Origin: a virus
Direction: 5' to 3' (one strand)
IMG/VR virus record: IMGVR_UViG_3300028840_004876
DNA: 57,483 bases
The stretch's first letter is position 1; each line of letters begins with the position of its first letter. The notes beneath the pieces are model-generated. The model was not told the origin of the DNA, ran no database searches, and worked only from the letters and a program-made list of their open reading frames with translations. Of the stretch, positions 10,583 through 35,674 are shown piece by piece. Position numbers and translations under genes: made by a program.

Positions 10583-11419
10583 GTGGCCAAGCGAGACGAC
10601 AAGCCGAAGGAAGTCGTAAAGGTCGAGGCGCCGCCGCAGTGGCTGGCCGAGGCCGCGGAGACGGACCAGTCCATCGAGGCGATGGCCGAGCACCGTGTGC
10701 TGCCCCGTCTCAAGGTCGTCCAGGGCATGAGCGACTCCGCGCTCAAGGACGCGGTGGGCGAGGGCGGCGTCGTCCTCACGCCGGGCAACGTTCTGGTCTG
10801 CTCCAGGGACGAGGGCTTCGAGTTCGTCCCGGTGTTCTTCTTCACCGAGTTCATCGAGATGTCCGACATCAACGACTCGGAGTCGCCCACGGTGCTCGAG
10901 CGCACCTTCGACGTCACGCACCCGCTCGCCGTCCGCGCGCGTGACGCGGACCAGTGGGAGCGCGACTACGGTCCCGAGGACTCGAAGGGCCGCGCGAAGT
11001 ACACGGCCCGTGCCTGCGAGGTCTTCAACTTCGTCGGCTTCCTCGACGGCGGCGACATCCCCGCCGAGCTCCACGGCGTGCCGCTGACGATCACGTTCGC
11101 GCGCGGCGAGTTCAACACCGGCCGGTCGTTCATCACGGCCATCACCATGCGGCGCGTCGGCGGGAAGATCGTCCCGCTGTGGGCGCAGCGCTGGGCGTTC
11201 ACCATCGGGTTCCGTGAGCGCGACTCGAAGAAGTGGTACGGTCTGGACGTTCGCAACCCGGCGCAGCCGTACATCAGCGAGGAGCAGGGCGCGATGTTCA
11301 AGGGCGCGCACGAGGAGTTCGCCGAGCTCTTCGAGAAGCAGCGCCTCAGCGTGGACCACGAGGACAAGCCCGCCGACGCCGAGATCGTCGAGGAGGGCGA
11401 GGACGAGTCGGAATTCTAG
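10583..11419 (+). CDS. Hypothetical protein, candidate ssDNA-binding protein with an acidic C-terminal tail ending in EF
   Basis: GTG start 7 nt after the gagaggagg RBS. The C-terminus is ADAEIVEEGEDESEF. The gene lies between helicase genes. The SSB call is an inference from the tail and the context only. Confidence 0.45.
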   Translation: MAKRDDKPKEVVKVEAPPQWLAEAAETDQSIEAMAEHRVLPRLKVVQGMSDSALKDAVGEGGVVLTPGNVLVCSRDEGFEFVPVFFFTEFIEMSDINDSESPTVLERTFDVTHPLAVRARDADQWERDYGPEDSKGRAKYTARACEVFNFVGFLDGGDIPAELHGVPLTITFARGEFNTGRSFITAITMRRVGGKIVPLWAQRWAFTIGFRERDSKKWYGLDVRNPAQPYISEEQGAMFKGAHEEFAELFEKQRLSVDHEDKPADAEIVEEGEDESEF

Positions 11420-14365: not shown

Positions 14366-15064
14366 ATGCCTGAGAGATTGGAGACGCGACGGCTGTTGCG
14401 CCACCGAGCGGCGGCGACGTCACGACCTTACATGGCGGCGCAGCTGCCCGGTGGAGAGGTGCTCGTGTTCGACACGCGGCCCTCCGGCGGTGGCCCGTTC
14501 TTCCCGGACATGGACGAGGACCGGGCGGCAGCGTACGCGCTGTCGATGTGCCGCGCGTGGAATGACGCGCTCGGTCGCGAGGACACCACACCACACACGG
14601 ATCTCGTACGACGCTTCCACGAGCGCCACCACTTCGGGATCGACCGTAACCTCTGCGAGGAAGGCGGCGATCACGACATGTTCCCCGCTGCGATGCTCAC
14701 GGCCATGGCGATGCAGGTGCTGGCGATGTCCGAGACGCTCGCGGCGTACGCCAGGAAGAGCGAACCGAACGGCGACTGGCGCATGAGTCGCGCGCACAAC
14801 ATGACCGAGGAACTCGCCGAGGTGCTCTTGGCCATGGCGGCCAAGGATCCTGTCGCGCTGCTCGACGGCCTGGGTGACTTGGCGTATGTCACGCATGGCA
14901 CCGCGGTCGTGTACGGGCTTCCGCTGGAGCGCGGGTTCCGGGAGATCCATCGGTCGAACATGACCAAGGACCCCGCGCCGGAAGGCGAGGTCACCCTGCA
15001 CCCGGTCAAGGGCGAGAACTACGAGCCGCCGGATCTCGCCGGTTGCTTCGAGGTGACGGAATGA
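14366..15064 (+). CDS. All-alpha NTP pyrophosphohydrolase (MazG / PRA-PH-like)
   Basis: MTEELAEVLLAMAAKDPVALLDGLGDLAYVTHGTAVVYGLPLERGFREIHRSNMTK matches the EExxE...D...D...sNmsK pattern of MazG-like phage enzymes. A gagaggag RBS lies upstream. Confidence 0.7.
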   Translation: MPERLETRRLLRHRAAATSRPYMAAQLPGGEVLVFDTRPSGGGPFFPDMDEDRAAAYALSMCRAWNDALGREDTTPHTDLVRRFHERHHFGIDRNLCEEGGDHDMFPAAMLTAMAMQVLAMSETLAAYARKSEPNGDWRMSRAHNMTEELAEVLLAMAAKDPVALLDGLGDLAYVTHGTAVVYGLPLERGFREIHRSNMTKDPAPEGEVTLHPVKGENYEPPDLAGCFEVTE

Positions 15065-16107
15065 GCCAGGTCAACCACGCCGCGGATCGCAAGGGCGCGG
15101 CGCTGTGCCTCGACGAGGCGTGGCACTACGCGGCGGCCGAGCTGTGGGACCACGCCGCTCACGCGACGTCGCGAGACGGTGACATCTTCGCGGAGCTTCC
15201 GGCCGCGCGTCTCATGCTCATGAACACCCGCGCCGTGTGGATGATGGGGCCGCGCAGCCCTTCACCGCTGTACGCTGCGGGCGAGCTCATGTGGTACCTC
15301 AGCGGGTCGGAGGATGGCGAGTTCATCTGCCACTATGCTCCGAGTTACGAGCGGTTCCTCAACGACGGCGTCGCGCTCGGCGCGTACGGGCCGCACATTC
15401 GTGGCCCGCTCAAGAGCGTGGGTGGCTTCGACCCGCTCATGCGGATCGCGTCGCTTCTCACAGCGAAGCCCGATACCCGGCAGGCCGTGTTGCCGATCTA
15501 CGGCTATCACGACCTCCAGGCTGCGGGCTCGCTGGCGAACGACATACCCTGCACACTCGGTCTTCAGTTCCTCGTGCGCGATTCGAGTCTCAACGTGATC
15601 TCGACCATGCGCTCGAACGACCTATGGCAGGGTCTGCCGTACGACATCTTCGCGTTCGCGACCATCAACGTTCTGCTGGCGCACCACCTCGACCTCTCGC
15701 CAGGATGGATCTGCCACCAGGCGGGATCGCTTCACCTGTACGAGCGCCACGCTGAGGCGACGCACCGCGCGATACTCAGCGGCCAAGACATGTACGCGCG
15801 ACCGCCGAAGCTGGGGTGGTGGACGCGTCGCGAGCCGGGCCGGCTGTTCCACGATCTCGCCGCCGCGGTCGCGCTCGAGCGTCGCTTTCGCGAGGATCGC
15901 GAGGTGCCGCTGGCCGAAGCGATCTCGTGCATCCAGCAGAGTCTCGGGGCGCGAACGCTGCTCGGCACCATCGTCGCGCTCTGCTACGCGAACCGCCGGG
16001 CCTTCAACATCGACGAAGCGAACGCGATGAACGTCGTCATCCCCGACTGGCTCATCGCCAAGGTCATCAACTGGCAGGGCCGTCAGCGAGCGTGGAGGAA
16101 GTCATGA
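15061..16107 (+). CDS. Thymidylate-synthase-family enzyme with the cytosine-type Asp. Predicted dCMP C5-hydroxymethylase or dCMP C5-methylase.
   Basis: ATGA overlap with the upstream stop. DIPCTLGLQFLVRDSSLNVISTMRSNDLWQGLPYDIFAFATI...GSLHLYERH aligns without gaps to E. coli ThyA [41 protein letters not shown]...GDTHLYSNH. Asp replaces Asn177. Confidence 0.75.
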   Translation: MSQVNHAADRKGAALCLDEAWHYAAAELWDHAAHATSRDGDIFAELPAARLMLMNTRAVWMMGPRSPSPLYAAGELMWYLSGSEDGEFICHYAPSYERFLNDGVALGAYGPHIRGPLKSVGGFDPLMRIASLLTAKPDTRQAVLPIYGYHDLQAAGSLANDIPCTLGLQFLVRDSSLNVISTMRSNDLWQGLPYDIFAFATINVLLAHHLDLSPGWICHQAGSLHLYERHAEATHRAILSGQDMYARPPKLGWWTRREPGRLFHDLAAAVALERRFREDREVPLAEAISCIQQSLGARTLLGTIVALCYANRRAFNIDEANAMNVVIPDWLIAKVINWQGRQRAWRKS

Positions 16108-16652
16108 TCACGCTCATCATCGAAGGCGCAGACAACCTCGGCAAGACCACGGCCGCGAAGAGGCTCGCGGCGCTGCACCTCGATCGGACCGGGGAGGCTA
16201 TCCCCGTCATCCATCACGGCCCGCCAACGGACCCCGTGATGGAATACTCGACCGAGCTCCTGCGCCCTGCCATACACGACCGTGGCCATCTTGGCTGGCT
16301 TGTGTGGCAAGGCATGCTGGCGCAAAGCGGGACGGAGTTCGACCGCCTCGCGATGGAGCAGCTGGTCCGGGTGCTGCGCGTCGTCCATCGTGTGATCGTC
16401 GTGTGCCTGTACGCCGATGACGACTGGTACTGCGAGCGCATCGCAGAGTACGACGATCGCGATGAGCTCATGCCGCCCAACATTCGACGGGTCGCGAACC
16501 GCGCGTTCGCGCAGCTCTGCTGGTCGCGCGACGGTAACTGTGAGAAGTACGTCGACATCCCTTACAACGTCAGCGTCAGCGGGTTCCCCAGCGATGCGAC
16601 CTTGAACCGCTGGCTGGACCGCTGCTCCCTGCGCCAGAGTGAGGCGCTCTGA
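16104..16652 (+). CDS. P-loop kinase, thymidylate-kinase-like (dNMP kinase; a DNA-level kinase is an alternative)
   Basis: ATGA overlap with the upstream stop. LIIEGADNLGKTTAAKRLA (P-loop, Tmk-like) and AIHDRGHLGWLVWQ (DRY..S..AYQ-like). Confidence 0.65.
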   Translation: MITLIIEGADNLGKTTAAKRLAALHLDRTGEAIPVIHHGPPTDPVMEYSTELLRPAIHDRGHLGWLVWQGMLAQSGTEFDRLAMEQLVRVLRVVHRVIVVCLYADDDWYCERIAEYDDRDELMPPNIRRVANRAFAQLCWSRDGNCEKYVDIPYNVSVSGFPSDATLNRWLDRCSLRQSEAL

Positions 16653-18681
16653 GGTCACAGTGATAGAGCTTGAGACCCACGACGGTCGAGTCGTCAATCT
16701 CGTTGAGCACGCCCGTGAGCTGCCAGAGTTCACGGGCGTTCAGCGGGTCTACGCCGACTGCGAGACCACGTCCGGCGACCCGAAGGTGAAAGCCTTCAAG
16801 CCGTACGGTGGGCATCGCATCGCTGGCGTGGCCGTGCTGCGCGACGACGAGGCGACGGCGTGGTACGTCCCGGTGCGCCACAAGCATGGGCGCAACATCC
16901 CGGCGCAGGCGGTGCGTCGCTGGCTCCGAGACATGATGACCGTCCCGGAGTGGGTGAACCACAACGTCAAGTTCGACGCGCACTTTGTCGCGTGCGCCGG
17001 CCGTGGCGACGAGCTCGTCTTCCCTGGCCGCATGATCGACACCGCCACGCTCGCCAAGTGCCACGACACGGATCGCATGGGTCACGGGCTCAAGGCGGTA
17101 TGCGCCGACTGGCTCGAGCAAGATCTCTCTGAGCAGGACGAGGTCGAGGCGTACCTGAAGAACGAGAAGACCAAGGACTACGGGGAGCTGCCAGCGGATC
17201 TCTGCGGGCGGTACGCCGGCCAGGACGTCTTGATGAACCGCGAGCTCATGCGGTTCCTCGAGGACCAGCGGCCGGAACAGATGCGCGACACGTGGGAGAC
17301 CGAGATCCTTCTCACGCCTGTCCTCTTCGACATCGAGCGAGCGGGCATGCGTGTGAACGATCTCGCCGTGAAGAAGCTCAAAGTCAAGACGCTGCGGTCG
17401 ATACTCGGGGCGCAGCAGGAGATCGTGGACCTCACTGACGGCCGCGAGTTCGTCGACTCTAGCAAGAACCTGTACGACCTCATCGTGAACGTGCTCGGTC
17501 TTCCGGTCCTCAAGTGGAACACGGACCCCGAGTCGAAGGAGCGTGGCTCGCCGTCCTTCGACAAGGAAGCGCTTGAGCTGTACGGTATGCACCCCGAGGT
17601 GCTTCACCAGCCGAGGAACGCGCGCGTGATCGAGCTCATCAAGTCGGCGCGCGCTGAGTCGCACTTCCTCAGCAACTACTTGGAGGTCTTCGGTCAGGCG
17701 GTTGAGACCGGTGGCTTCGTTCATCCGAGCTTCAACCAGCTCATTCGGACGGGGCGCATGAGCGCCTCGGACCCGAACGTGATGGGGATGAGCAAGGCCG
17801 CCAAGGATCTCATCATCCCCGACGACGACGAGTACGGCATCCTCACTGCGGACGCAGAGCAGATTGAGTTCCGTCTCATCGTCCACTACATCCGTGATGC
17901 CGATGCGATCGCAGCGTACGCGCGTGACCCGGACACGGACTTCCACATGTGGGCGGCGCGGCTGTGCGAGGTCGAGCGCACGCCCGCGAAGACTCTCAAC
18001 TTTGCGATGGGCTACGGCGCAGGGAAGAAGCGCGTCGTGTCGCTGCTGCTCACGGACCCCACGATCATGCACGACGTCGGCGAGATCATCGCCCAGCAGA
18101 TCGAGGAGGGTCGCGTACCCGAACGCCTACGCGCACAGGCGTACCACCGGCTGTGCGAGCGTCGCGCGCAGGGCGTGTACACGCGGTACCACGAACGCCT
18201 GCCCGGGATCAAGAGGACCTCGCGAGCTGCGGCGCAGAAGTGCATCATGCGTGGGTACGTCTTCAACCCGTTCGGCCGTCGCCGTCACTTGCCGCCTCGC
18301 GCTGCGCACAAGGCCTTCAACACCATCGTCCAGGGCGGTGCGATGGACATCATCAAGCGGCGGATGATTCGGTTGGCTCCGCGTTACAACTCGTGGGTGC
18401 GGAACAGCGACATCCGTCTCTTCGGAAACGTCCACGATGAGCTGCCGCTTCACGGGCCACGCGAGGCGCTGGAGGACCCGAAGATCCAGGCGCGCATCCA
18501 CGCGGTGCTCGAGACCACAGACATCGACTTCCGGGTTCCGTTCACCTGGGAGGCCGGCTACTCACCGCTGTCGTGGAAGGCGGCGGGAGCGAAAGAGAAC
18601 GTCATCGACAAGATCCGGCTGCGGAAGATCGCCCTCGAGGAGGGCTTCCTCGGCCCGCAAATGCGGAGGTACTACGAGTGA
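16639..18681 (+). CDS. Family A DNA polymerase with a 3'-5' exonuclease domain
   Basis: YADCETT (ExoI), NHNVKFDAHF (ExoII), YAGQDV (ExoIII), ADAEQIEFRLIVHY (motif A), RTPAKTLNFAMGYGAG (motif B), NVHDEL (motif C). The start is GTG 16639 or GTG 16660. Confidence 0.93.
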   Translation: MRRSEVTVIELETHDGRVVNLVEHARELPEFTGVQRVYADCETTSGDPKVKAFKPYGGHRIAGVAVLRDDEATAWYVPVRHKHGRNIPAQAVRRWLRDMMTVPEWVNHNVKFDAHFVACAGRGDELVFPGRMIDTATLAKCHDTDRMGHGLKAVCADWLEQDLSEQDEVEAYLKNEKTKDYGELPADLCGRYAGQDVLMNRELMRFLEDQRPEQMRDTWETEILLTPVLFDIERAGMRVNDLAVKKLKVKTLRSILGAQQEIVDLTDGREFVDSSKNLYDLIVNVLGLPVLKWNTDPESKERGSPSFDKEALELYGMHPEVLHQPRNARVIELIKSARAESHFLSNYLEVFGQAVETGGFVHPSFNQLIRTGRMSASDPNVMGMSKAAKDLIIPDDDEYGILTADAEQIEFRLIVHYIRDADAIAAYARDPDTDFHMWAARLCEVERTPAKTLNFAMGYGAGKKRVVSLLLTDPTIMHDVGEIIAQQIEEGRVPERLRAQAYHRLCERRAQGVYTRYHERLPGIKRTSRAAAQKCIMRGYVFNPFGRRRHLPPRAAHKAFNTIVQGGAMDIIKRRMIRLAPRYNSWVRNSDIRLFGNVHDELPLHGPREALEDPKIQARIHAVLETTDIDFRVPFTWEAGYSPLSWKAAGAKENVIDKIRLRKIALEEGFLGPQMRRYYE

Positions 18682-19928
18682 AGAAGGAAGACGGGACCGC
18701 AATCGGAGTCCACGCGTTCGCGGGTGGCCTCACACTGGGCATGGACCGCGTGTTCAACGTCAAGGGTCAACTCGAAGTCTTCGACCTCGGCTGCGACAGC
18801 GTGCGTCACAATCTCGGGATCCCCGTCGTCCGTTGCGACGACGCGTCGTGGATGGACTCGCCGCCCGAGTGGGCCGAGAAGGCGCAGATCGTCTTCGGCA
18901 ACCCGCGGTGCACGGCGTTCAGCTGTCTCAACCGCGGGTGCGGGAAAGACGGGTACGGGCCCGAGGGCCGCGCGACCAAGGACGTTCGGCAGGCCGTCGA
19001 CTTCGTGGAGCGCGTGCGTCCGCACGTGTTCGTGTGGGAGTCCGTTCAGCCAGCGATCACCGCGGGCCTTCCGCTCGTCCTCGACATCGAGGAGCGCCTC
19101 GCCAAGCTGCGGTACTCGCCGACGCGGCTGCTGCTCAACGCAGCGACGTGGCACAACTCGCAGAACAGGCGTCGCTTCTTCCACGTGTTCACGAAGCCTG
19201 GCATCCACTTCTGGCCCGACGTCCCGGAGGTCCCGAAGAAGTGGCTCACCGTCCGCGAGGTGATCGAGGACCTCGCTGAGCACGAGGTGACCAGCGACCA
19301 TCAGTGGAACTACGAGACACCGGAGGACGCGGCGCAGGACGAGGTGCTCAACCACCACTGGTGGGACGACCCGTGCTTCACGCGTCTCGTCTGCTCGCTC
19401 GTCCCGCCAGGGCGCTCGATGAATGACGTGCCGTGGGACGACCTGCTCAAGATCCAGGCGGAGGGATTCAGCGGTTACGTCGACGGCTACCTCAGAGGCG
19501 CAGGCTCGTTCTCGCGTCACGCCGCGCGACGTCTCCATCCCGACGGCGCGAGCCGCGTCGTGTACGGTGGCTGGCACATGACGATCCACCCGTGGCTCGA
19601 CCGCGGCGTCACCGTGCGTGAGACCGCGAGGCTCATGGGGTTCCCCGACGACTGGGTCTTCCTTGGTCCGGCCGGTGGCTACGCGCAGATCGGGAAGGGC
19701 GTCGTGCCGGCCGTCGCGGAGTGGCTCGCGTGGCAGATCCTTCGAGCCATCGACTCGCCGAACCCGACCAAGCGCAAGAAGGAGTGGCGGTTCAACACGC
19801 GGACGCGGATGGTCGAGGAGCGCCGCGTGCCGGATGGCGAGGTGCGCACGTTCGATCTCACGCGCATGACTGCGAAGGTGCCGCGCCCGAAGCTCGCGCC
19901 TCGACGGAGCGTGTTCGAAGGCTACTGA
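18678..19928 (+). CDS. DNA (cytosine-5) methyltransferase-like protein with atypical catalytic motifs
   Basis: GTGA overlap with the polymerase stop. HAFAGGLTLG (motif I), FGNPRCTAFS (motif IV, PRC instead of PC), FVWESV (motif VI, ESV instead of ENV), SQNRRRFF (motif VIII), TVRETARLMGFPDDW (IX), GKGVVPAV (X). Confidence 0.8.
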   Translation: MKKEDGTAIGVHAFAGGLTLGMDRVFNVKGQLEVFDLGCDSVRHNLGIPVVRCDDASWMDSPPEWAEKAQIVFGNPRCTAFSCLNRGCGKDGYGPEGRATKDVRQAVDFVERVRPHVFVWESVQPAITAGLPLVLDIEERLAKLRYSPTRLLLNAATWHNSQNRRRFFHVFTKPGIHFWPDVPEVPKKWLTVREVIEDLAEHEVTSDHQWNYETPEDAAQDEVLNHHWWDDPCFTRLVCSLVPPGRSMNDVPWDDLLKIQAEGFSGYVDGYLRGAGSFSRHAARRLHPDGASRVVYGGWHMTIHPWLDRGVTVRETARLMGFPDDWVFLGPAGGYAQIGKGVVPAVAEWLAWQILRAIDSPNPTKRKKEWRFNTRTRMVEERRVPDGEVRTFDLTRMTAKVPRPKLAPRRSVFEGY

Positions 19929-19957
19929 GAAAAACTCTGAGTTAGCGGAGATTGCTG

Positions 19958-19986
19958 TTGACGGCCCATGGCCCGTGGTGTAGAAT
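19958..19986 (+). promoter_or_regulatory. Early promoter P1: TTGACG, 17-nt spacer, TAGAAT
   Basis: Exact 17-nt spacer. CTGAGAAAAACTCTGAG lies upstream at 19925. The conserved leader aacagtcgattgaaaccacgggccgcacagaacaggag follows. Confidence 0.7.
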
Positions 19987-20034
19987 TTCAACAGTCGATT
20001 GAAACCACGGGCCGCACAGAACAGGAGACGAACA

Positions 20035-20499: not shown

Positions 20500-20507
20500 A
20501 GCTGCGC

Positions 20508-20536
20508 GCCGGGCGCCTCCACGAGGGGCGCCCGGC
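20508..20536 (+). terminator. Hairpin terminator gccgggcgcc-tccacgagg-ggcgcccggc
   Basis: 10-bp GC stem with a 9-nt loop. The stem-loop is identical to the one at 24604..24632. Confidence 0.55.
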
Positions 20537-20539
20537 TGA

Positions 20540-20555
20540 CTGAGAAATTTCTCAG
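20540..20555. promoter_or_regulatory. Perfect 16-bp palindrome CTGAGAAATTTCTCAG upstream of P2, an operator or UP-like element
   Basis: Self-complementary. Related CTGAGAAA motifs occur at 7020, 19925, 24230 and 24636, each upstream of a predicted promoter. Confidence 0.5.
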
Positions 20556-20562
20556 AAGGTTG

Positions 20563-20591
20563 TGGACGGGTCGTGGCCGCAAGCGTACACT
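20563..20591 (+). promoter_or_regulatory. Early promoter P2: TGGACG, 17-nt spacer, TACACT
   Basis: Same architecture and leader as P1 (aacagtcgattgaaaccacggccgca...gaacaggag). Confidence 0.65.
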
Positions 20592-20644
20592 AGCAACAGT
20601 CGATTGAAACCACGGCCGCACGGAACCACGAACAGGAGCCAGCC

Positions 20645-21401: not shown

Positions 21402-21875
21402 ATGAGCGGCAGGATCTACATCCGCGACGCGCGGACCGGCGAGGAGCTCAAGAGCCATTCGATGCACGGGCGACGTCTCGAGGGTTGCTCGTCCGCGCCC
21501 ATCATCGAAGGGCGCCGCGTGATGAACGCGCGGACCGCCGTGCACACCTTCCGCACCTCGCGCCAGCGGGCCGAGAACTGGATCGTCGGTCTCAAGGCTC
21601 TGCCCGACCCGCGCCAGCCGCTCCAGGTCAAGATGTGGTGGGGCCCGGAGCACGCTGAGACCGTGTGGCTGCTCGACCACGATGGGAGCGAGCTCGTCGA
21701 TGAGCACCCGCGCTACATCACCCGCGAGGAGTTCCTCGCGCTCAGCGCGGCGCAGGCGGCGGGCACGCACCCGCGCGACCCGGAGCCGCAGAGCGCCGCG
21801 CGGACCGAGGAGCAGGTCCAGGCGGACATCGACCGGTGGGAGCAGTGGGAGAAGGAGAACGGGTACTACGACTGA
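21402..21875 (+). CDS. Hypothetical early protein (157 aa)
   Basis: ATG 21402 lies inside the long Arg-rich track ORF 20994..21875. The plausible protein sequence begins at MSGRIYIRD. Confidence 0.55.
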   Translation: MSGRIYIRDARTGEELKSHSMHGRRLEGCSSAPIIEGRRVMNARTAVHTFRTSRQRAENWIVGLKALPDPRQPLQVKMWWGPEHAETVWLLDHDGSELVDEHPRYITREEFLALSAAQAAGTHPRDPEPQSAARTEEQVQADIDRWEQWEKENGYYD

Positions 21876-21884
21876 GTCGATCAC

Positions 21885-21912
21885 GCGGGGACCTTCGGGT
21901 CCCCGCTCTTTC
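21885..21912 (+). terminator. Intrinsic terminator gcggggacc-ttcg-ggtccccgc followed by tctttc
   Basis: 9-bp stem, tetraloop and a T-rich tail. Confidence 0.65.
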
Positions 21913-21925
21913 GCAGGTAAAGTAC

Positions 21926-21945
21926 ACATTGCGTATCCGCAATGT
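21926..21945. promoter_or_regulatory. Perfect 20-bp palindrome ACATTGCG-TATC-CGCAATGT just upstream of the RBS of the sugar operon
   Basis: 8-bp arms with a 4-nt spacer. It ends 15 nt before ATG 21960. Confidence 0.5.
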
Positions 21946-21959
21946 CGAGAGGAGGAAGC

Positions 21960-22559
21960 ATGCATCAACTCAGAGTTGCGAGCGTCGCCCCCTTCGAGGG
22001 AGTGAAGCTCGTCAAGTACGGTCGCTTCGACGACGAGCGCGGGTACTTCGCCGAGCCGTTCCGCGCCAGCCAGATGGCCGACGTCGTCGGCGCGCCCATC
22101 GTCCAGATGAACGAGTCGCTGTCGCACGCGGGCGTACTCCGAGGTCTCCACTTTCAGTGGGCGCCCTTCATGGGCAAGCTCGTTCGCGTGATCGACGGGT
22201 ACATGGTCGACATCGTGTGCGACATCCGCGTCAACTCGCCGACGTACGGCGTGGTCCAGATGGTCCGCATGCTCCCTGGCAGCGGATGGATCTGGGTCCC
22301 GCCGGGTTTCGCACACGGGAACGCGTTCCCGGTCCGCACGCGCATTCAGTACCTGTGCACGGGCGAGTACTCGCAAGAGACGGAGGCCTGCCTGTCGCCA
22401 CTCGGGACGGACCTCGACTGGTCCCTCTGCGACCCCGCCGTGCTCGAGGTCGTGCGCGCGTGCCCGACCATCTCGATGAAGGACCGCGACGGCTACTCGG
22501 CGCAAGAGTGGCTGGCCGACGAGCGGTCGATGAACTTCCTGTATGAGGACCTCCGATGA
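21960..22559 (+). CDS. rmlC: dTDP-4-dehydrorhamnose 3,5-epimerase-like cupin (RmlC family)
   Basis: FDDERGYFAEPF, VLRGLHFQ, KLVRVIDGYMVDIVCDIRVNSPTYG and WVPPGFAHGN. The start was moved to ATG 21960, which follows gagaggaggaagc. Confidence 0.85.
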   Translation: MHQLRVASVAPFEGVKLVKYGRFDDERGYFAEPFRASQMADVVGAPIVQMNESLSHAGVLRGLHFQWAPFMGKLVRVIDGYMVDIVCDIRVNSPTYGVVQMVRMLPGSGWIWVPPGFAHGNAFPVRTRIQYLCTGEYSQETEACLSPLGTDLDWSLCDPAVLEVVRACPTISMKDRDGYSAQEWLADERSMNFLYEDLR

Positions 22560-23281
22560 CCCGCGACGCCAGCGTCCTCTTCACCGGCGGCTCGGGCCTC
22601 TTGGGCGCCGCCATGCGAGCCAGGCGCCCCGGCCTCAGGTACCCGCCTAGGGGCGCGTTCGATGTAACCCGCCCGTCGGCAATGCGAAACTACGTGGAGG
22701 CCCTTAGCCTGTCCTGTATCGTCCACGCAGGGGCCTTTACGTCCCCACCACGGGTAGACGCTGACCCTGCCCGGGCGATCGAGGTCAACGTGGCGGGCAC
22801 CGCGCACGTGGCCGCGCTGTGCGCGGCGCGGAAGCTGCGCCTCATCTACATCTCGACGGACTACGTCTTCCGTGGCACGCGAGGACCGTACGCCGAGGAC
22901 GATCCCGTGTACCCCGTCAACTGGTACGCGTGGTCGAAACTCGGAGGTGAGTGCGCCGCTCGTCTCTGTCCGGGCAGCCTCATCATCCGCACCTCGTTCG
23001 GACCGGACGAGTTCCCGTACGAGAAGGCGTTCTACGATCAGCTCACGTCGCGGGTCTCGGTGAGCGTGTTCGCAGACGCGCTGTCGCGACTCATCGACTC
23101 GGACGTGTCCGGAGTCCTGCACGTGGGCCACTACGAGGGCCGCTCCGTCCTGGCGTTCGCGCGGGAGCAAGGCGCGGCGCCGGAGCAAGTCACTCGCTTC
23201 GACATGCCGTTCGCTGTTCCGTATGACACCACGCTCGACGTCGACCGATGGCTCGAGCTCAACGAGGAAGGACGTGTGTGA
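22556..23281 (+). CDS. rmlD: dTDP-4-dehydrorhamnose reductase-like SDR (RmlD family, short form, 241 aa)
   Basis: ATGA overlap with the upstream stop. LFTGGSGLLGAA (Rossmann), YISTDYVF and NWYAWSKLGGE (YxxxK). Confidence 0.7.
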   Translation: MTRDASVLFTGGSGLLGAAMRARRPGLRYPPRGAFDVTRPSAMRNYVEALSLSCIVHAGAFTSPPRVDADPARAIEVNVAGTAHVAALCAARKLRLIYISTDYVFRGTRGPYAEDDPVYPVNWYAWSKLGGECAARLCPGSLIIRTSFGPDEFPYEKAFYDQLTSRVSVSVFADALSRLIDSDVSGVLHVGHYEGRSVLAFAREQGAAPEQVTRFDMPFAVPYDTTLDVDRWLELNEEGRV

Positions 23282-24246
23282 TGCGCATCGTACTCTGCGG
23301 AGGTGGGGGCTTCATCGGCTCGGCGCTGGCGCCCGAGCTCGTCCAACGCGGCCACGACGTCACGGTGCTCGACCTCTTCTGGTTCGGGCGCGCGATGCCG
23401 AGCGACGTCACGGACGTGAAGCAAGAGCTCTTCGACTGCTGCGGCGACGACTTCGAGAATGCGGACGTCGTCGTGTTCCTGGCCGGCCTGTCGAACGACC
23501 CGATGGCCGAGTTCAGCCCGGCTCTGAACTTCAAGTACAACGCCGCGCTCCCTGCGCTGCTCGCGTTTCTCGCGCGTGGCATCGGCGTGCGTCGCTTCGT
23601 CTACGCCTCGAGCTGCTCCGTGTACGGGTGGGCGCCCGACGAGGAGCAGACCGAGAGCGGCACCATCGACTGCGACTACCCGTACGGCATCGCGAAGCTT
23701 CAGGGCGAGGCCGGCGTTTCTCGGATGCTGTGCGACGGAGAGTTCGAAGTCGTCGCGCTGCGGAAGGGAACCGTCTGTGGTCACAGCCCGCGCCCGCGTG
23801 CGGACCTCATCGTGAACGCGATGATCAAGTCCGCGCTCACCGAGGGCGTCATCTACATCAACGACGCCACGACGTGGCGTCCGCTACTCAGCGTCCGCGA
23901 CGCCGTGCGTGCGTACGTGCGTGCGATCGAGGGACGCGCCAGCGGCGTGTTCAACGTCGCGAGCGTGAACGCGACCGTGCGCGAGGTCGCGGACGACGTG
24001 CTCGCGACGCTGTGCCTGTTCAAGTACGGCGCCGGCGTCGAGATCGTGCACCGCATGCGGAAGGACCGCCGCAGTTACCGCGTGAGCACCGCGTCGTTCC
24101 GCGCCGTGTTCGGCAACTGCTTCAGCGACGGCGTACGCGACATGGCCGCGAGCGTCCTTCAGAACCTCGAGGCGTACGGGGACTTCAGCGACCCCGCGCT
24201 GAGCAACATCGAGACGTTCAAGGCCCTCGGAGAAAATCTCAGTTAA
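23281..24246 (+). CDS. NAD-dependent sugar epimerase/reductase (extended SDR). It lacks the TDE dehydratase triad.
   Basis: TGATG overlap with the upstream stop. LCGGGGFIGSAL, YASSCSVYG and YPYGIAKLQGE (YxxxK). The sequence is SCS where 4,6-dehydratases have TDE. Confidence 0.8.
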   Translation: MRIVLCGGGGFIGSALAPELVQRGHDVTVLDLFWFGRAMPSDVTDVKQELFDCCGDDFENADVVVFLAGLSNDPMAEFSPALNFKYNAALPALLAFLARGIGVRRFVYASSCSVYGWAPDEEQTESGTIDCDYPYGIAKLQGEAGVSRMLCDGEFEVVALRKGTVCGHSPRPRADLIVNAMIKSALTEGVIYINDATTWRPLLSVRDAVRAYVRAIEGRASGVFNVASVNATVREVADDVLATLCLFKYGAGVEIVHRMRKDRRSYRVSTASFRAVFGNCFSDGVRDMAASVLQNLEAYGDFSDPALSNIETFKALGENLS

Positions 24247-24259
24247 CTCTGAGTTTGCT

Positions 24260-24288
24260 GTGGACGGGTCGTGGTCGCAACGCTACAC
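24260..24288 (+). promoter_or_regulatory. Early promoter P3: TGGACG, 17-nt spacer, TACACT
   Basis: The spacer ggtcgtggtcgcaacgc is nearly identical to that of P2. The leader ends in acacgaacaggagacgacg followed by ATG. Confidence 0.65.
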
Positions 24289-24326
24289 TAGCAACAGTAG
24301 AAGTGAAACACGAACAGGAGACGACG

Positions 24327-24593: not shown

Positions 24594-24603
24594 CACGCCG
24601 GAC

Positions 24604-24632
24604 GCCGGGCGCCTCCACGAGGGGCGCCCGGC
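24604..24632 (+). terminator. Hairpin terminator, identical stem-loop to 20508..20536
   Basis: gccgggcgcc-tccacgagg-ggcgcccggc. Confidence 0.55.
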
Positions 24633-24658
24633 AAACTGAGAAACTTTGAAAAGAGTAG

Positions 24659-24687
24659 TGGACGGGGCGCACCACGAACGCTAGAAT
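24659..24687 (+). promoter_or_regulatory. Early promoter P4: TGGACG, 17-nt spacer, TAGAAT
   Basis: The conserved leader aacagtcgattgaaaccacgggccgtacagaaccgaacaggag follows. Confidence 0.7.
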
Positions 24688-24740
24688 TCGAACAGTCGAT
24701 TGAAACCACGGGCCGTACAGAACCGAACAGGAGCAGACCG

Positions 24741-30330: not shown

Positions 30331-30415
30331 AGCTCTTCGTCGCACTCGTAGGCGGGCTCATCGGGTTTGTACTCGGAGTTCGCGCGGCGAGGATGGATCG
30401 AGAGAGGAGGAAGTG

Positions 30416-31441
30416 ATGAGCTGTACCTACTACTGTGACGGGTGTGGGAAGAAGCTCGGTTCGCACGTCGAGGGCGTGCTGAAGGCCGAGCACCGCACTC
30501 GCAACGGGCGCACCCTTTCCGTGTTCGTTCAGCCACAGCTGGTCAACGGCGAGCACTGGTGCCACGACTGCCAGCGCGCGGCCATCGCGTCCACGGGAGA
30601 CGGGCGCAAGCAGCCGATGGCAGAGCGTGTCGACCTGCCCGTGGTTGAGAAGCGCGGCGAGGAGCTGCCGCTGTCGCGGTATCGCAACAGCGACTGGCGC
30701 GTGAGCGTGATCAACGACATCATGAATAGCGCTGCCGACGCTGCGCCGCAGTACGGCATCGACAAGATGATCGCGCTCGAGTTGCGGGAGCGCGCGCAGC
30801 TCGCGTTGCTCGACGCGTGGGTCGCGGGCGTCAGACATCAGCTCTCGCTTCGCGATGACTTCGGCGCCGACGAGAAAGCGTACGCCGGTGAGGCGCTTCA
30901 CGAGCTCGCGAGGGTCGTCACGGGTCAGATCACCGACGTCAAGGCTGCGCTGAAGGGCGCGTACAACACCGGACTCGGAGTCGGCGTCAGGCGCAACTAC
31001 AACGATCTCGAGGCTGCGCGCGAGCAGCGGAACAAGTACAAGGAACGGCGCGACGCCGTGTACCGGGTGTTCCGCAGTGTCATCGCCGCGCTCGGCTTCG
31101 AGGACATGCCCGTCGAGACGCTTCACGCGGTACAGCTGGACCAGTGGCTGGCGCGAAGCGAGCCGCGTCTTCGCGAGCTGGTCGAGACCCGTGATAGGCT
31201 GCGCTCGGCGAATCGCACCCTCAGTCGTCGTCGGCGTGAGCGCGACGCCGCGGTCGAGGACCTCAGCACCGTCGCGAGGATCATCGAGTGCGAAGACCAG
31301 CAGCACATCATCGAGCGGGCGCGCCAGCTGCGGTCTGCGAAGTCGACGGCGTGGGACATGCTCAGCACGCTGCGAACGAAGATTCAGCATGGCGCGCCGC
31401 GCGATCAGCTGCTCGAGAACATCGCCGAGGTGCTCGGATGA
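30416..31441 (+). CDS. Zinc-ribbon plus coiled-coil protein (341 aa)
   Basis: The start was moved to ATG 30416, which follows gagagaggaggaagtg. CDGCGKK...CHDC. Confidence 0.55.
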   Translation: MSCTYYCDGCGKKLGSHVEGVLKAEHRTRNGRTLSVFVQPQLVNGEHWCHDCQRAAIASTGDGRKQPMAERVDLPVVEKRGEELPLSRYRNSDWRVSVINDIMNSAADAAPQYGIDKMIALELRERAQLALLDAWVAGVRHQLSLRDDFGADEKAYAGEALHELARVVTGQITDVKAALKGAYNTGLGVGVRRNYNDLEAAREQRNKYKERRDAVYRVFRSVIAALGFEDMPVETLHAVQLDQWLARSEPRLRELVETRDRLRSANRTLSRRRRERDAAVEDLSTVARIIECEDQQHIIERARQLRSAKSTAWDMLSTLRTKIQHGAPRDQLLENIAEVLG

Positions 31442-32082
31442 ATGTCATCGAGCCGAGCTACCAGATCGAGTACGTCACCGGCACGGAGTGTGACGATGAC
31501 CCCGTTCAGTCGCCCCTCGCTCTCATCGAGCGCGCGGCCCGTACGTGCTACAAGTCCGAGGCCCGCATCGCGCCCGGTACTGCCGAGAAGCTGACGCGTC
31601 ATCTCATCAAGCGCGGGCATCACGCGATGCTCGAGTTCGGGTTGGTGGTCGTGCGGTTCATCGTCGACCGCGGCGTCAGCCACGAGCTGGTCCGCCACCG
31701 CCTCTGCTCGTTCGCGCAGGAGTCGACGCGCTTCTGTAACTACAGCGGCGGTGTCACGTTCATCCGACCGCCGTGGCTAGACCAGGGCGGTTCCACGTCG
31801 GCAAGTGGTCGCTGGCGGCACGCCATGTCGAGAGCGGAGTCCGACTACCTCGCCTTGCTCCGCGGAGGTTGGACGCCGCAGCAGGCGCGCAGCGTTCTGC
31901 CGAACAGCACGAAGACCGAGATCGTGGTCGGCGCCAACTTCCGTGAGTGGCGAACGATCTTCGGTCTCCGCGTGGCGAAGGCCGCGCACCCGCAGATGCG
32001 GCAGGTCATGGTGCCCTTGCTCGAAGAGGTCAAGACCATCGTTCCCGTTCTCTTCGACGACGTTGAGGTGCCTGATGCTTGA
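31438..32082 (+). CDS. thyX: Flavin-dependent thymidylate synthase ThyX
   Basis: ATGA overlap with the upstream stop. VRHRLCSFAQESTRF is an exact RHRxxSxxxxSxR ThyX signature. Confidence 0.9.
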   Translation: MNVIEPSYQIEYVTGTECDDDPVQSPLALIERAARTCYKSEARIAPGTAEKLTRHLIKRGHHAMLEFGLVVVRFIVDRGVSHELVRHRLCSFAQESTRFCNYSGGVTFIRPPWLDQGGSTSASGRWRHAMSRAESDYLALLRGGWTPQQARSVLPNSTKTEIVVGANFREWRTIFGLRVAKAAHPQMRQVMVPLLEEVKTIVPVLFDDVEVPDA

Positions 32083-33125: not shown

Positions 33126-33334
33126 GGCTCCCGAAGAAGAAGGCCAAGGCGCAGAGCAAGGGCCAGATCATCTGCGCCGTCAACGCAACCGCGCGGTGCG
33201 AGATCGCTGCCGTGACGCCGGACAAGGCGGCGCTGGTCCGCCTCGGATGGAAGAGGTCCTCGCCGGAGGACGGGAAGCACGACACGTGGGCCTGCCCGCA
33301 CTGCTCGAAGATCGTGGAGGTACTCGGACGATGA
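33122..33334 (+). CDS. Small basic zinc-ribbon protein (70 aa)
   Basis: GTGA overlap with the upstream stop. ICAV...ARCE...CPHC. Confidence 0.45.
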   Translation: MRLPKKKAKAQSKGQIICAVNATARCEIAAVTPDKAALVRLGWKRSSPEDGKHDTWACPHCSKIVEVLGR

Positions 33335-34332
33335 AAGCGCTCATCACTGGCATGACACCGACGCAATGCGGTCGGCAGGCTCGCGGCATCACGGTCGCGG
33401 GTGACGGCTGGCGCAGCGCACTCGAGCACGCGGGGTGGGAAGTGGATCACCGCGTGATCGCTGTCAACGAGGACCTCGGCGAGTACGATGCCGTCCTCGT
33501 CGGGATCGGACAGATCAACTCCATGACTGCGAGGCACGCGAGCAGCGCACTGTACGCCTTGCTCGACCGGCCGGACGCGAAGCTCTTCTGCGACGACTGG
33601 CAGATCACGCAGGCGCACTCTGGCTTCCGCGTCGCACGCTGGTCGCCCATGCGCCTGTACACGATGGACGGTCGGCCGGGCAATACGCTGCTCTACCGCG
33701 ATCACCAGGACGCCGTCATGAAGGTGCTCAAGGAGTTCGCGAAGCCGCGGTGGAAGCGACCGATGCTCGTCGCGACGCACGGCGACGGCGTGCCGTACAA
33801 GCTGAAGGTCCCCGGTCCGGTGACGTGCGCGGACCCGTCCAACTTCACTCCGAGGTGGGCGCCGTACCCCTGGCCGCGTGAGCGTGCGTGGATCTGGGCA
33901 TCGCTGTACCGCTACGAGAAGAGCAAGAACCGCAAGACGCCGTGGGCGGGCACGTGGCCGATCGTCCATCACGGACGCGTCCGCGACCTGCCGAACGGCG
34001 TCGACCTCGACAACGACAAGGAGTTCATTCCGCAGGACGAGCTCATCGAGAAGATGCAGCGAACCGTGGGCTACGTCGTCCCCGAGCGCCCGCTCATGGG
34101 CAGTGGCTGGTGGCGTCACCGCTACGTTCTCGCGAGCGACAGCGGTAACGTGGTCGTGTGCCATCCGGACGAGGCCGCGATCTTCGGTGATGCGTACCTC
34201 GTCACGCCGCAGGAGGTCGAGGCGCATCCGGAACCGCACGCGCTCTGGCAGGCGCAACGCGATGCGCTCAACGCCGTGGTGTGGTCGGCCGACCGCTGCG
34301 CCGAGGTCGTGGACGAGTTCATGCGCTCATGA
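33331..34332 (+). CDS. Hypothetical protein (333 aa), candidate DNA base glycosyl/group transferase (weak)
   Basis: ATGA overlap with the upstream stop. MKALITGM..., EYDAVLVGIGQINS and GWWRHRYVLASDSGNVVVCHPDEA loosely recall the two Rossmann-like halves of T4 beta-glucosyltransferase. This is from memory and not verified. Confidence 0.3.
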   Translation: MKALITGMTPTQCGRQARGITVAGDGWRSALEHAGWEVDHRVIAVNEDLGEYDAVLVGIGQINSMTARHASSALYALLDRPDAKLFCDDWQITQAHSGFRVARWSPMRLYTMDGRPGNTLLYRDHQDAVMKVLKEFAKPRWKRPMLVATHGDGVPYKLKVPGPVTCADPSNFTPRWAPYPWPRERAWIWASLYRYEKSKNRKTPWAGTWPIVHHGRVRDLPNGVDLDNDKEFIPQDELIEKMQRTVGYVVPERPLMGSGWWRHRYVLASDSGNVVVCHPDEAAIFGDAYLVTPQEVEAHPEPHALWQAQRDALNAVVWSADRCAEVVDEFMRS

Positions 34333-34718: not shown

Positions 34719-34819
34719 TAACTATCGTGTCAGGGCGTGGCCTGTAGCCCTGCGGCCATACAGACGTGCTACACGGCAAACCCGCGGCATAGTGCGGGTA
34801 GAATAGGGGACTGGCTCGG

Positions 34820-34837
34820 TGGCCCCATGTGGGGCCA
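34820..34837. promoter_or_regulatory. Palindrome TGGCCCCA-TG-TGGGGCCA, a putative operator
   Basis: 8-bp perfect arms. Confidence 0.5.
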
Positions 34838-34891
34838 TGCGGGTCAAGTCTCTACCAGTACAGGACTTAGAGCGTTTCGACGGGTCGCAGG

Positions 34892-34909
34892 TGGCCCCAC
34901 GTGGGGCCA
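34892..34909. promoter_or_regulatory. Perfect 18-bp palindrome TGGCCCCACGTGGGGCCA
   Basis: Self-complementary, including the CG centre. Confidence 0.55.
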
Positions 34910-35069
34910 TGGGTAACTGGCAAATGCGTCTGCGGCTGGTAGCCCCTACCCTATCGAAACGCCCTAACCACCTGATAGATAAAGACCTACACTGACCCAG
35001 GTACTGTTATTCCTAGCTTTCCGGGAGGAGAGGCCTGGGAGCGCGGCAGGCGCACATACCAGTTACCCC

Positions 35070-35087
35070 TGGCCCCACGTGGGGCCA
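35070..35087. promoter_or_regulatory. Perfect 18-bp palindrome TGGCCCCACGTGGGGCCA, 24 nt upstream of the regulator ATG
   Basis: Identical to the palindrome at 34892..34909. Confidence 0.55.
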
Positions 35088-35110
35088 CCTGATTTTGGAG
35101 CCCGGGAGGA

Positions 35111-35674
35111 ATGAGCGAGGAACGCGAGATACTGGACGCGATCGCGAAGGCAGAGGCGCAAGAGCAACGCGACATTCTGCGACGCTGTGACTGGGAGGAT
35201 CCCGCGGACGTCGCGCTCTTGAGAAGCAGCGACAGGCTGGCAGCACGGATGCGTGCGATACGCCGCCTCTGCCAGGGTATGCGCTGCCCGGGGTGCGGCG
35301 ACATCGTGCTGAGGTCGCGCTCATGGGTGTTGCGGAACGACGGCGAGAGCGCGGTCTGCCGGTCGTGCTTCTTCCGCATGCGTGAGCGCGGCGAGAAGAA
35401 GGTGACGATAGCTTCGAGTCTCGTCTCCTTCGAGGAAGTGCGGTACCACATCGAGCCGCACACGCTGGTGCTGGCGCGTGAGGCTGCGGGCATACCGCAA
35501 GCAGAGTTCGCGCGTCGCGCCGGATGGAGTCGAGGCTGGCAGCGCAAGCTCGAGGCGGGCGAACGCATCAGGCTTCAAGCTGAGGCAGTGCAGACAATCT
35601 TCACCGTGCTTCGAGAGGCCGGCGTGGAACTCGAAGACGGGGACAGGGTGGCCCCAAGTGGGGCCAGGCAGTAA
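35111..35674 (+). CDS. Transcriptional regulator: zinc ribbon plus XRE-type helix-turn-helix
   Basis: The gggagga RBS lies upstream. CPGCG...CRSC. LAREAAGIPQAEFARRAGWSRGWQRKLEAGER has the HTH_XRE pattern. Confidence 0.7.
   Translation: MSEEREILDAIAKAEAQEQRDILRRCDWEDPADVALLRSSDRLAARMRAIRRLCQGMRCPGCGDIVLRSRSWVLRNDGESAVCRSCFFRMRERGEKKVTIASSLVSFEEVRYHIEPHTLVLAREAAGIPQAEFARRAGWSRGWQRKLEAGERIRLQAEAVQTIFTVLREAGVELEDGDRVAPSGARQ
35649..35666. promoter_or_regulatory. Palindrome TGGCCCCA-AG-TGGGGCCA inside the 3' end of the regulator gene, just upstream of the next promoter
   Basis: 8-bp perfect arms, followed by ggcagtaactg as in the element arms. Confidence 0.5.

Follow-up and report, generated by a model that had tools for sequence, protein, structure and literature searches.

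The virus genome IMGVR_UViG_3300028840_004876 of the IMG/VR collection, whose 57,483 nucleotides were analysed as a whole and are referred to here as the window, carries at positions 21,926 to 24,246 a compact nucleotide-sugar operon, which is the subject of this report. Translation of the open reading frames (ORFs) of the window confirmed three genes on the plus strand between 21960 and 24246. The first encodes an RmlC-type cupin of the nucleoside diphosphate (NDP)-4-keto-sugar 3,5-epimerase class (21960..22559; 199 aa, or 205 aa if translation began at the ATG at 21942), the second a short RmlD-type NDP-4-keto-sugar reductase (22556..23281; 241 aa), and the third an extended short-chain dehydrogenase/reductase (SDR; 23281..24246; 321 aa, with an alternative start at 23248). 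Translation of the epimerase most probably begins at ATG 21960, downstream of the ribosome-binding site GAGAGGAGGAAGC, rather than at ATG 21942, which sits within a palindrome at 21926-21945. Likewise, ATG 23281 is the most likely start of the SDR, and the public gene call P0001, also of 321 aa, is 100% identical to it. The stop codon of the epimerase gene overlaps the start codon of the reductase gene in the sequence ATGA (22556-22559), and the reductase stop overlaps the SDR start in TGATG (23279-23283). Owing to these stop/start overlaps at both junctions, the three genes constitute one translationally coupled operon. Its codon usage follows that of the rest of the genome (relative synonymous codon usage, r = 0.975) and its GC content of 66.5% is close to the genomic value of 65.4%, which argues against recent acquisition of the operon and against an artefact or chimera of the assembly.

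An original prediction for this locus had recognized the first gene as RmlC-like by the motifs RGYFAEPF, LRGLHFQ and PPGFAHG, all of which are present in a protein that matches PF00908 (E 2e-35) and finds its best PDB matches among RmlC enzymes (E 5e-24). Its residues H64, K73, Y131 and D175 align with the catalytic His, Lys, Tyr and Asp of Escherichia coli RfbC and are invariant, while its C-terminal extension marks it as a long RmlC variant. The RmlD-like second gene contains the predicted motifs GGSGLLG and YAWSK and matches PF04321 (RmlD_sub_bind; E 1.5e-33), with the match covering only profile positions 3-179 of 287. The catalytic Thr-Tyr-Lys triad of T101, Y124 and K128 (STDYVF, YxxxK) is invariant when the protein is aligned to E. 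coli RfbD, relative to which about 19 aa of the substrate-binding region are deleted after the RTS strand and the C-terminus, including the C-terminal helix, is shortened. Moreover, all three operon proteins fall far below the NCBIfam equivalog cut-offs, which were used for rmlC, rmlD, rmlB and galE: the epimerase scores 118.4 bits against TIGR01221 (rmlC; cut-off 155.75) and the reductase 116.9 bits against TIGR01214 (rmlD; cut-off 224). In agreement with the earlier statement that equivalents of RmlA and RmlB are lacking, a scan of every predicted protein of the window revealed neither of them, nor any other nucleotidyltransferase or dehydratase domain.

These data bear on one conceivable role of the operon, namely that of auxiliary metabolic genes representing a partial rhamnose pathway, in which the RmlC- and RmlD-like enzymes would top up or redirect the dTDP-L-rhamnose of the host, the SDR would be an unrelated GalE-like epimerase and no dedicated phage acceptor would be involved. 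In many large phages rmlC is annotated as a moron (PHROG 8784), whether alone or accompanied by rmlA or rmlD, and the canonical catalytic residues of epimerase and reductase would suit such a function. It is opposed by the scores well under both equivalog cut-offs and by the loss of parts of the substrate-binding region and of the C-terminal helix from the RmlD-like protein, as well as by the behaviour of the third gene and its bacterial relatives described below. Taken together, we regard this role as improbable.

The third enzyme is indeed an extended SDR (PF01370, E 7e-32) featuring the predicted YGIAK and S-C-S (SSCSVYG) elements. The original prediction had refrained from calling it RmlB, and rightly so: the S-C-S (YASSCSVYG), which is invariant across the family, stands in place of the Thr-Asp-Glu (or T-S-E) of dehydratases, and the score against TIGR01181 (rmlB) amounts to 22.5 bits versus a cut-off of 365. 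An NDP-hexose 4,6-dehydratase of the RmlB or Gmd type is therefore excluded by the missing acid/base pair in conjunction with this score. Homologues of the SDR number in the thousands at about 50% identity, and the family is characterized by the invariant motifs GLSNDPMAEFSP, YASSCSVYG, YPYGISK and SPRMRFDL, by the invariant triad S111, Y135 and K139, and by an equally invariant D31, the Asp at the end of beta-2. In a Rossmann fold, an Asp after beta-2 entails a preference for NAD rather than NADPH. Hence, the invariant Asp indicates an NAD-type SDR and suggests that its reaction begins with oxidation of the substrate, as in a dehydrogenase or an epimerase; the alternative that the SDR serves as a terminal reductase is accordingly disfavoured. 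Judged by these sequence features, the SDR is predicted to be an NAD-type C4-oxidoreductase of an uncharacterised, very conserved family. Its nearest homologues, P0002 and P0003 (52% identity), were considered as proteins of sister phages and rejected as such, their source being short bacterial-looking contigs.

When the family profile of the SDR was compared with all solved structures, 6vo6 ranked first (E 1.3e-36, 130 bits), followed by MoeE5 (76 bits, E 2.9e-20). The single SDR sequence likewise retrieved 6vo6 as its top match in the structural database, at low identity (E 3.5e-18), and the element SPRMRxDLxVN is common to the family and 6vo6. We take 6vo6 to be Cj1427, the GDP-heptose C4-dehydrogenase of Campylobacter jejuni, a presumed identity that we count as a weakness of the overall interpretation developed below. 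Cj1427 sets free its 4-keto product and recycles its tightly bound NADH by means of alpha-ketoglutarate.

A different assignment would make the SDR a dTDP-L-rhamnose 4-epimerase of the WbiB/Tle type, with dTDP-6-deoxy-L-talose as the product of the operon. This would accord with the metagenomic locus L007, in which the SDR gene adjoins wzm and wzt, as wbiB does in Burkholderia. The closest solved relative of the SDR, 6vo6, is not a 4-epimerase, which speaks against the assignment. The underlying combination of RmlC, RmlD and an epimerase is known from Burkholderia and Mycobacterium abscessus, and in the Tle/WbiB enzymes a distance of 60 residues separates the catalytic Ser and Tyr (S121 and Y181), and an additional element is inserted at 128-165 (PMC11549994). 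In the phage SDR, on the contrary, S111 and Y135 are separated by 24 residues, and on this ground membership in the WbiB/Tle family was rejected. The assignment thus appears very improbable, though the rejection covers family membership only and an SDR of another lineage could still 4-epimerise.

The phage trio is a conserved bacterial three-gene cassette. In metagenomic neighbourhoods of SDR homologues the same three genes recur in the same order within polysaccharide loci. A set of 80 SDR-family loci from GTDB species representatives was scored by tblastn, and RmlC-like and RmlD-like genes were both found within 3 kb of the SDR gene in 59 of them; an RmlD-like gene alone occurred in ten loci, an RmlC-like gene alone in six, and neither in the remaining five, several of these latter contigs being truncated. 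The architecture of the phage, consisting of a long RmlC-like gene, a short RmlD-like gene and the SDR gene (type A), is displayed by about 27 of the 80 loci and occurs in Desulfobacterales, Gemmatimonadales, Planctomycetes, Spirochaetes, Bacteroidia, bacteria of the candidate phyla radiation (CPR) and DPANN archaea. A second architecture (type B), mostly found in Acidobacteriota, comprises, in this order, a canonical RmlC sharing 45-54% identity with E. coli RfbC, the SDR and RmlD. The SDR gene has both partners close by in 59 of 80 loci, a tight linkage, and in the phage its translation is coupled to theirs; it is therefore not an unrelated passenger. This stands in opposition to the partial rhamnose pathway considered above, and the trio is not the ad hoc version of that pathway which had been implied at the outset. 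As far as could be found, the RmlC-like/RmlD-like/SDR cassette is widespread and uncharacterised.

The company of the cassette in cells is that of glycan synthesis. Bacterial cassette loci contain glycosyltransferases (GTs), Wzm/Wzt, Wzy, Wzz and Bac_transf proteins. Genes for the early steps of nucleotide-sugar synthesis are rare: only three to four of the 80 loci have RmlA and/or RmlB at a distance of up to 10 kb, namely both in L040 and L094, RmlB alone in L043 and weak matches in L073. In L094 (6601-10948) the cassette is interleaved with RmlB and RmlA, while in L040 (6237-10948) RmlA, a canonical RmlC and RmlB lie directly upstream of the RmlC-like gene of the cassette itself, such that this locus holds two RmlC genes. 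For a rhamnose-pathway role of the operon these two loci cut both ways, as the precursor genes adjoining the cassette in bacteria are precisely RmlA and RmlB, but the canonical RmlC of L040 exists besides the cassette copy. The genes for ManB, ManC, GmhA and HldE are absent from the surroundings of all 80 loci.

The cassette was also encountered in viral contigs. In L002 it accompanies a GT2-GT4 fusion beside portal and S49 protease genes, and in L003 its neighbours are three GT1/GT2 genes and one for a radical-SAM enzyme. Scans of IMG/VR with RmlC patterns yielded two contigs, those with SDR peptide patterns recovered no relatives, and no near-identical phage DNA emerged when the operon was compared by megablast with 50,697 phage records. 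As a side observation, radical-SAM genes recur next to the cassette, in a plain form in the viral contig L003 (6799-7767) and as B12-binding variants in the bacterial loci L004 (6205-7722) and L009 (8119-9579), which hints at further modification of the cassette sugar, e.g. by C-methylation.

From the gene identities, the catalytic residues and the conservation of the cassette, all of which were observed directly, we infer substrate and product as follows. The operon very probably constitutes an intact, translationally coupled nucleotide-sugar tailoring cassette that would convert a host NDP-hexose via an NDP-4-keto intermediate into the nucleotide of a rare L-hexose or 6-deoxyhexose. In this scheme the NAD-type SDR would act at C4 of the sugar nucleotide, the RmlC-type enzyme, which requires a 4-keto sugar, would epimerise C3/C5, and the shortened RmlD-type enzyme would reduce the 4-keto group. 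Two routes are conceivable. In route (a), which by analogy with Cj1427 stands about an even chance, the SDR would oxidise C4 without the help of a dehydratase, followed by epimerisation and reduction, such that the 6-OH would be kept. In route (b), a tentative option that falls somewhat short of even chances, RmlA and RmlB of the host would provide dTDP-4-keto-6-deoxy-glucose, from which the phage pair would form a 6-deoxy-L-hexose that is further epimerised by the SDR. The interleaving of the cassette with RmlB and RmlA in L094 argues for the dTDP 6-deoxy route and weighs against route (a), as do the canonical RmlC genes of the type B loci. On the other hand, the second, canonical RmlC of L040 argues that the RmlC-like enzyme of the cassette is something other than an ordinary RmlC and weighs against route (b). 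The two loci are thus opposed in this respect. The original prediction had required a host NDP-4-keto-6-deoxyhexose or an NDP-hexose as donor. Dependence on the host still appears apt, and the kinship of the SDR with an enzyme of the C4-dehydrogenase type renders an ordinary NDP-hexose as likely a starting point as a 4-keto-6-deoxyhexose, with neither being preferred. A heptose, which was considered because L007 contains an SIS-domain gene and L004 a GT9 gene, is not supported as substrate, given that GmhA and HldE are missing from all 80 loci.

Among characterised systems, the trio of C. jejuni formed by Cj1427, Cj1430/MlghB and Cj1428/MlghC resembles the phage operon in combining an SDR oxidant devoid of dehydratase residues with a cupin epimerase and an SDR reductase in the absence of a 4,6-dehydratase. 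In addition, the nearest structure to the phage SDR, by more than 50 bits, is 6vo6, presumably Cj1427 itself, and the partner RmlC-like epimerase and C4-reductase are adjacent and coupled in the phage. In C. jejuni, Cj1427 generates the 4-keto sugar without dehydration, whereupon the C3/C5 epimerase Cj1430 and the C4-reductase Cj1428 follow (PMC10680097). The systems differ in that the phage reductase is of the RmlD rather than the GFS type, that the phage epimerase is nearer to the dTDP-type RmlC, that no GmhA or HldE accompanies the 80 cassette loci, and that the identity of the phage SDR to 6vo6 is low. With the dTDP-L-rhamnose pathway, the operon has in common the folds of RmlC and RmlD with all their catalytic residues, and RmlA/RmlB adjoin the cassette in two to three bacterial loci. 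It deviates from this pathway by the lack of RmlA/RmlB in the phage and in about 95% of the cassette loci, by its sub-threshold equivalog scores, by the truncated RmlD and by its obligatory third SDR. Hence, the operon is not a strict member of the dTDP-rhamnose pathway, and it works like either the C. jejuni trio or the back half of the rhamnose pathway.

A possible destination of the sugar emerges from the replication region of the same genome. Of the annotated relatives, MW202657, a siphovirus from spring water, is the closest; its DNA polymerase is 44% identical and its replication module is syntenic. In the phage under study, genes for a MazG-like pyrophosphohydrolase, a thymidylate-synthase homologue, a P-loop kinase-like protein and DNA polymerase A follow one another. 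The thymidylate-synthase homologue (15061..16107, plus strand; PF00303, E 1.2e-22) is a predicted dCMP 5-hydroxymethylase: its best PDB match is MilA, a CMP 5-hydroxymethylase (E 6.5e-28), and comparison with E. coli ThyA and T4 gp42 shows that Cys146 is kept, that N177 and L143 are both changed to Asp, and that D169 is kept. According to the rules established for this enzyme family, N177D confers specificity for cytosine, L143D/E results in a hydroxymethyl instead of a methyl product, and D169N leads to 5-hydroxycytosine (bioRxiv 10.1101/2025.06.16.659550). The retained D169 thus sets the homologue apart from the 5-hydroxy-dCMP synthase type, and its residues along with the MilA match lead to the prediction that the phage introduces 5-hydroxymethylcytosine (hmC) into its DNA. 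Moreover, the genome encodes the flavin-dependent thymidylate synthase ThyX (31438..32082, plus strand; PF02511, E 2.3e-44), which supplies dTMP and thereby leaves the ThyA homologue free for another role.

The two flanking genes would complete the module. The MazG-like nucleotide pyrophosphohydrolase (14366..15064, plus strand; PF01503, E 2.9e-11; PHROG 671, E 3.6e-20) has no detectable similarity to T4 gp56, and its presumed role is that of a dCTPase-type enzyme. The P-loop kinase-like protein (16104..16652, plus strand; 182 aa), which contains EGADNLGKTT and whose gene is preceded by a ribosome-binding site, has no Pfam match but resembles the thymidylate kinases of PHROG 761 (E 7.5e-5), so that it may act as a dNMP kinase.

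The sole glycosyltransferase candidate in the genome is P0121 (33331..34332, plus strand), a protein of 333 aa with a predicted GT-B fold and a candidate DNA glycosyltransferase. Pfam returned nothing for P0121 or for any of the nine members of its family. An initial model from a two-sequence alignment was unusable (predicted local distance difference test score, pLDDT, 35) and was replaced by an AlphaFold (AF2) model based on nine family sequences, which attained a pLDDT of 61.6 and a predicted template-modelling (TM) score, pTM, of 0.63. In a Foldseek comparison of this model with the PDB, the top match was 1qkj, the beta-glucosyltransferase (BGT) of phage T4 (E 3.7e-5, probability 1.0, TM score 0.49), and further matches comprised other BGT entries and GT-B enzymes. 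Among the viral models of BFVD, its own family was followed by GT1 enzymes and the GT of phage SP-15. When the family profile was searched against the PDB, nothing beyond a flavodoxin-like hint at the N-terminus (E 2) was obtained, and hhalign of P0121 against T4 BGT was not significant (probability 2%). On the basis of the structural model, we regard P0121 as a putative T4 BGT-like glycosyltransferase, an assignment of moderate strength.

The distribution of the P0121 family is suggestive. Homologues exist in MW202657 and in other relatives that possess the module of MazG and thymidylate-synthase homologue. In two unrelated phage lineages, the metagenome contig L015 (8695-13863) and the Actinomycetia phage DSL-LC01 (L105, 69-11613), whose homologue bears a glycosyltransferase annotation, it lies directly beside a UDP-galactopyranose mutase, while thymidylate-synthase homologues with Asp at position 177 (N177D) and a methyltransferase or MazG-like protein are also close by. 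Judged by its gene content, this cluster looks like a candidate module for galactofuranosyl-cytosine DNA modification. In the Aeromonas phage phiAS4 (L104, 3817-7089), motA is followed by three hypothetical proteins in tandem, each of about 350 aa, the middle one belonging to the P0121 family; by this kinship, the tandem proteins of T4-like Aeromonas phages may be their DNA glycosyltransferases.

These observations allow for an integrated proposal, which we favour at slightly less than even chances, namely that the operon supplies the donor of a rare L-sugar for the glycosylation of hmC in the DNA of the phage itself. In this scenario the MazG-like pyrophosphatase, the thymidylate-synthase homologue and the kinase would together make 5-hydroxymethyl-dCTP, hmC would be incorporated into the phage DNA, and the T4 BGT-like protein would transfer the sugar provided by the operon onto hmC, resulting in a hypermodified genome resistant to host nucleases. 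The core of hmC synthesis and GT would be common to the relatives, with the cassette as a lineage-specific add-on for an unusual donor sugar, a role paralleled by the mutase of L015 and DSL-LC01 and by the arabinose genes of RB69 and DLP3. While the fold of the GT is provided by the model, we infer that the DNA contains hmC and that operon and GT are linked. The more specific version, in which hmC is decorated with an L-hexose or 6-deoxyhexose from a cassette whose SDR replaces the 4,6-dehydratase, appears rather unlikely. To our knowledge, no L-hexose or 6-deoxy-L-hexose has been reported on DNA.

Known systems provide partial precedents for this proposal. The glucosyl-hmC system of T-even phages, which comprises gp42, gp56, the gp1 kinase and alpha- and beta-GTs, is matched by the thymidylate-synthase homologue with N177D and L143D, by the pyrophosphatase and kinase-like genes near that of the DNA polymerase, and by T4 BGT as the best structural match of the GT. 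It differs in that the present genome is that of a siphovirus-like phage of 57 kb with 65% GC, in the absence of sequence similarity to BGT or gp56, and in that T4 uses the UDP-glucose of its host whereas this phage has a sugar-nucleotide operon of its own. Phage-encoded supply of the donor for DNA glycosylation is known in the form of NDP-arabinose genes in RB69 and DLP3 and a UDP-galactose mutase in RL38JI (bioRxiv 10.1101/2025.06.16.659550; PMC13326640). In these phages, too, a thymidylate-synthase homologue yields a hydroxylated cytosine, the phage makes or tailors the donor and a DNA GT transfers it, and the neighbourhood of GT and mutase in L015 and DSL-LC01 matches that proposed for DNA galactosylation in RL38JI. 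Unlike the phage described here, whose retained D169 predicts a hydroxymethyl product, they make 5-hydroxycytosine (D169N), and their sugar enzymes are entirely different from the present trio, which implies an L-hexose or 6-deoxy-L-hexose.

Several points weigh against the operon serving the glycosylation of hmC. The operon and the GT gene are 9 kb apart with no direct tie between them, and the GT assignment itself depends on a model of middling confidence (pLDDT 62, TM 0.49) with a non-significant hhalign result. Furthermore, MW202657 possesses the GT family but is devoid of the cassette across its whole genome, and the closest relative, L011, whose proteins are 40-72% identical, carries unrelated small genes at the site of the operon, just upstream of the homologue of the gene at 24741. 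The existence of relatives with the same GT and no cassette implies that the GT can work with a donor of the host. In addition, a C5-cytosine methyltransferase homologue beside the polymerase gene (18573-19928; PF00145, E 3e-18) would be left without a substrate in the case of complete replacement of cytosine by hmC; its presence may reflect partial replacement of cytosine, action on host DNA or a different C5 chemistry. At the same place, MW202657 carries two methylases. Finally, the cellular copies of the cassette always reside in polysaccharide loci, and the viral copies in L002 and L003 lie beside GT-A/GT-B glycan transferases.

This last point, together with the relatives that manage with the same GT family and no cassette, supports an alternative destination, in which the rare sugar nucleotide would feed the glycosylation of virion proteins or serve to remodel a glycan of the host envelope, with receptor masking or superinfection exclusion as possible benefits. 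The transferase would then be a host enzyme or an unrecognised enzyme of the phage, and the BGT-like protein would draw on a donor of the host, e.g. UDP-glucose, irrespective of the operon. The viral contigs provide parallels, as the GT2-GT4 fusion of L002 lies by the genes for portal and S49 protease, and L003 combines three GT1/GT2 genes with radical-SAM. On the other hand, no GT, flippase, polymerase, lipid-carrier transferase or nucleotidyltransferase is recognisable by Pfam in the 57-kb genome, and the absence of GT-A/GT-B glycan transferases from the window distinguishes it from the virion-glycosylation clusters of the mycobacteriophage type as well as from L002 and L003, which have them. 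Moreover, the operon is situated in the replication/early region, outside the structural module, and a foreign donor would have to be accepted by the GTs of the host. We consider the supply of a glycan unlikely. The position of the operon had been noted as unusual for sugar genes; if the product serves DNA modification, this location is not odd. The link to DNA modification that the original prediction implied has been strengthened by the dCMP-hydroxymethylase module (14366-16652), by the BGT-like protein (33331-34332) and by the occurrence of its family beside a nucleotide-sugar enzyme in other phages, yet it is not proven.

If the operon does feed the BGT-like transferase, hmC would bear a previously unseen sugar, the chemistry by which phages counter restriction, CRISPR and modification-dependent nucleases would be broader than hitherto appreciated, and sugar-donor cassettes would be swapped as modules beside a conserved core of hydroxymethylase and GT. 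The wider system would resemble those of the T-even phages and of the arabinosyl- and galactosyl-cytosine phages while differing from them in its enzymes and its predicted class of sugar. If the SDR does replace the dehydratase, a dehydratase-independent route to L-sugars would also operate in many glycan loci of bacteria, CPR and DPANN. Being compact, the phage copy lends itself to direct expression for elucidating the chemistry of the cassette, for which L040 and L094 represent further good targets.

With respect to the boundaries of the operon, a GC-rich hairpin with a 9-bp stem, GCGGGGACC-TTCG-GGTCCCCGC, followed by TCTTTC, lies immediately 5' of it (21885..21912, plus strand). The hairpin is situated exactly where a terminator had been proposed and contributes to a stable RNA fold of the region 21870-21975 (-44.6 kcal/mol, z = -4.6); a consensus terminator scan did not call it, as its T-run is short, so that it is best termed terminator-like. 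The perfect 8-bp palindrome ACATTGCG-TATC-CGCAATGT (21926..21945, plus strand) between this hairpin and the ribosome-binding site forms the second hairpin of the same fold, is found only once in the window and could be an operator or an RNA hairpin. At the other end of the operon, GAGAAAATCTCAG (24230-24242) codes for the terminal SDR residues GENLS ahead of the TAA at 24244-24246, which bears out the claim that a promoter-cassette motif forms the last codons of the gene; together with CTCAGTTAACTCTGAG it forms a hairpin over the gene end, followed by the third copy of a 65-nt unit (24230..24312, plus strand).

This promoter-like plus leader unit occurs four times (19945-20009, 20550-20614, 24248-24312 and 24646-24710) and consists of a -35/-10-like pair (TTGACG or TGGACG, 17 nt, TAGAAT or TACACT) and the conserved leader CAACAGTCGATTGAAACCACGGGCCG, which has no match among the Rfam families. 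A small gene of unknown function lies downstream of each unit, and ahead of two of the copies lie a GC hairpin, nearly identical in both, and the palindrome GAGAAA..TCTCAG (associated stretches 20507-20573 and 24603-24669). The early cassettes of the original prediction are hence real as a fourfold repeat, while their early timing relies on consensus matches only: two of the four copies fit the sigma-70 consensus and are predicted promoters. The operon has no copy of the unit of its own and no recognisable promoter of that type.

Further features of the genome may be mentioned. All predicted genes of the window are encoded on the plus strand at about 65% GC, and scans of the window for tRNAs and Rfam families were both empty. 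Homologues of Pam3 gp32 and gp34 (9499-9852 and 10583-11419) are located between an SNF2 helicase and the primase, an arrangement kept in all relatives seen (L001, L014 and L016). A long coiled-coil-like ORF with no family match (30413-31441), whose end overlaps the start codon of ThyX, is absent from the closest relative L011, as is ThyX. Finally, the palindrome GGTGGCCCCAnGTGGGGCCA occurs four times (34818-34839, 34890-34911, 35068-35089 and 35647-35668); three copies lie just upstream of a helix-turn-helix gene (35111-35674) and the fourth within the 3' end of that gene, and by this arrangement they look like putative operators for the helix-turn-helix regulator.

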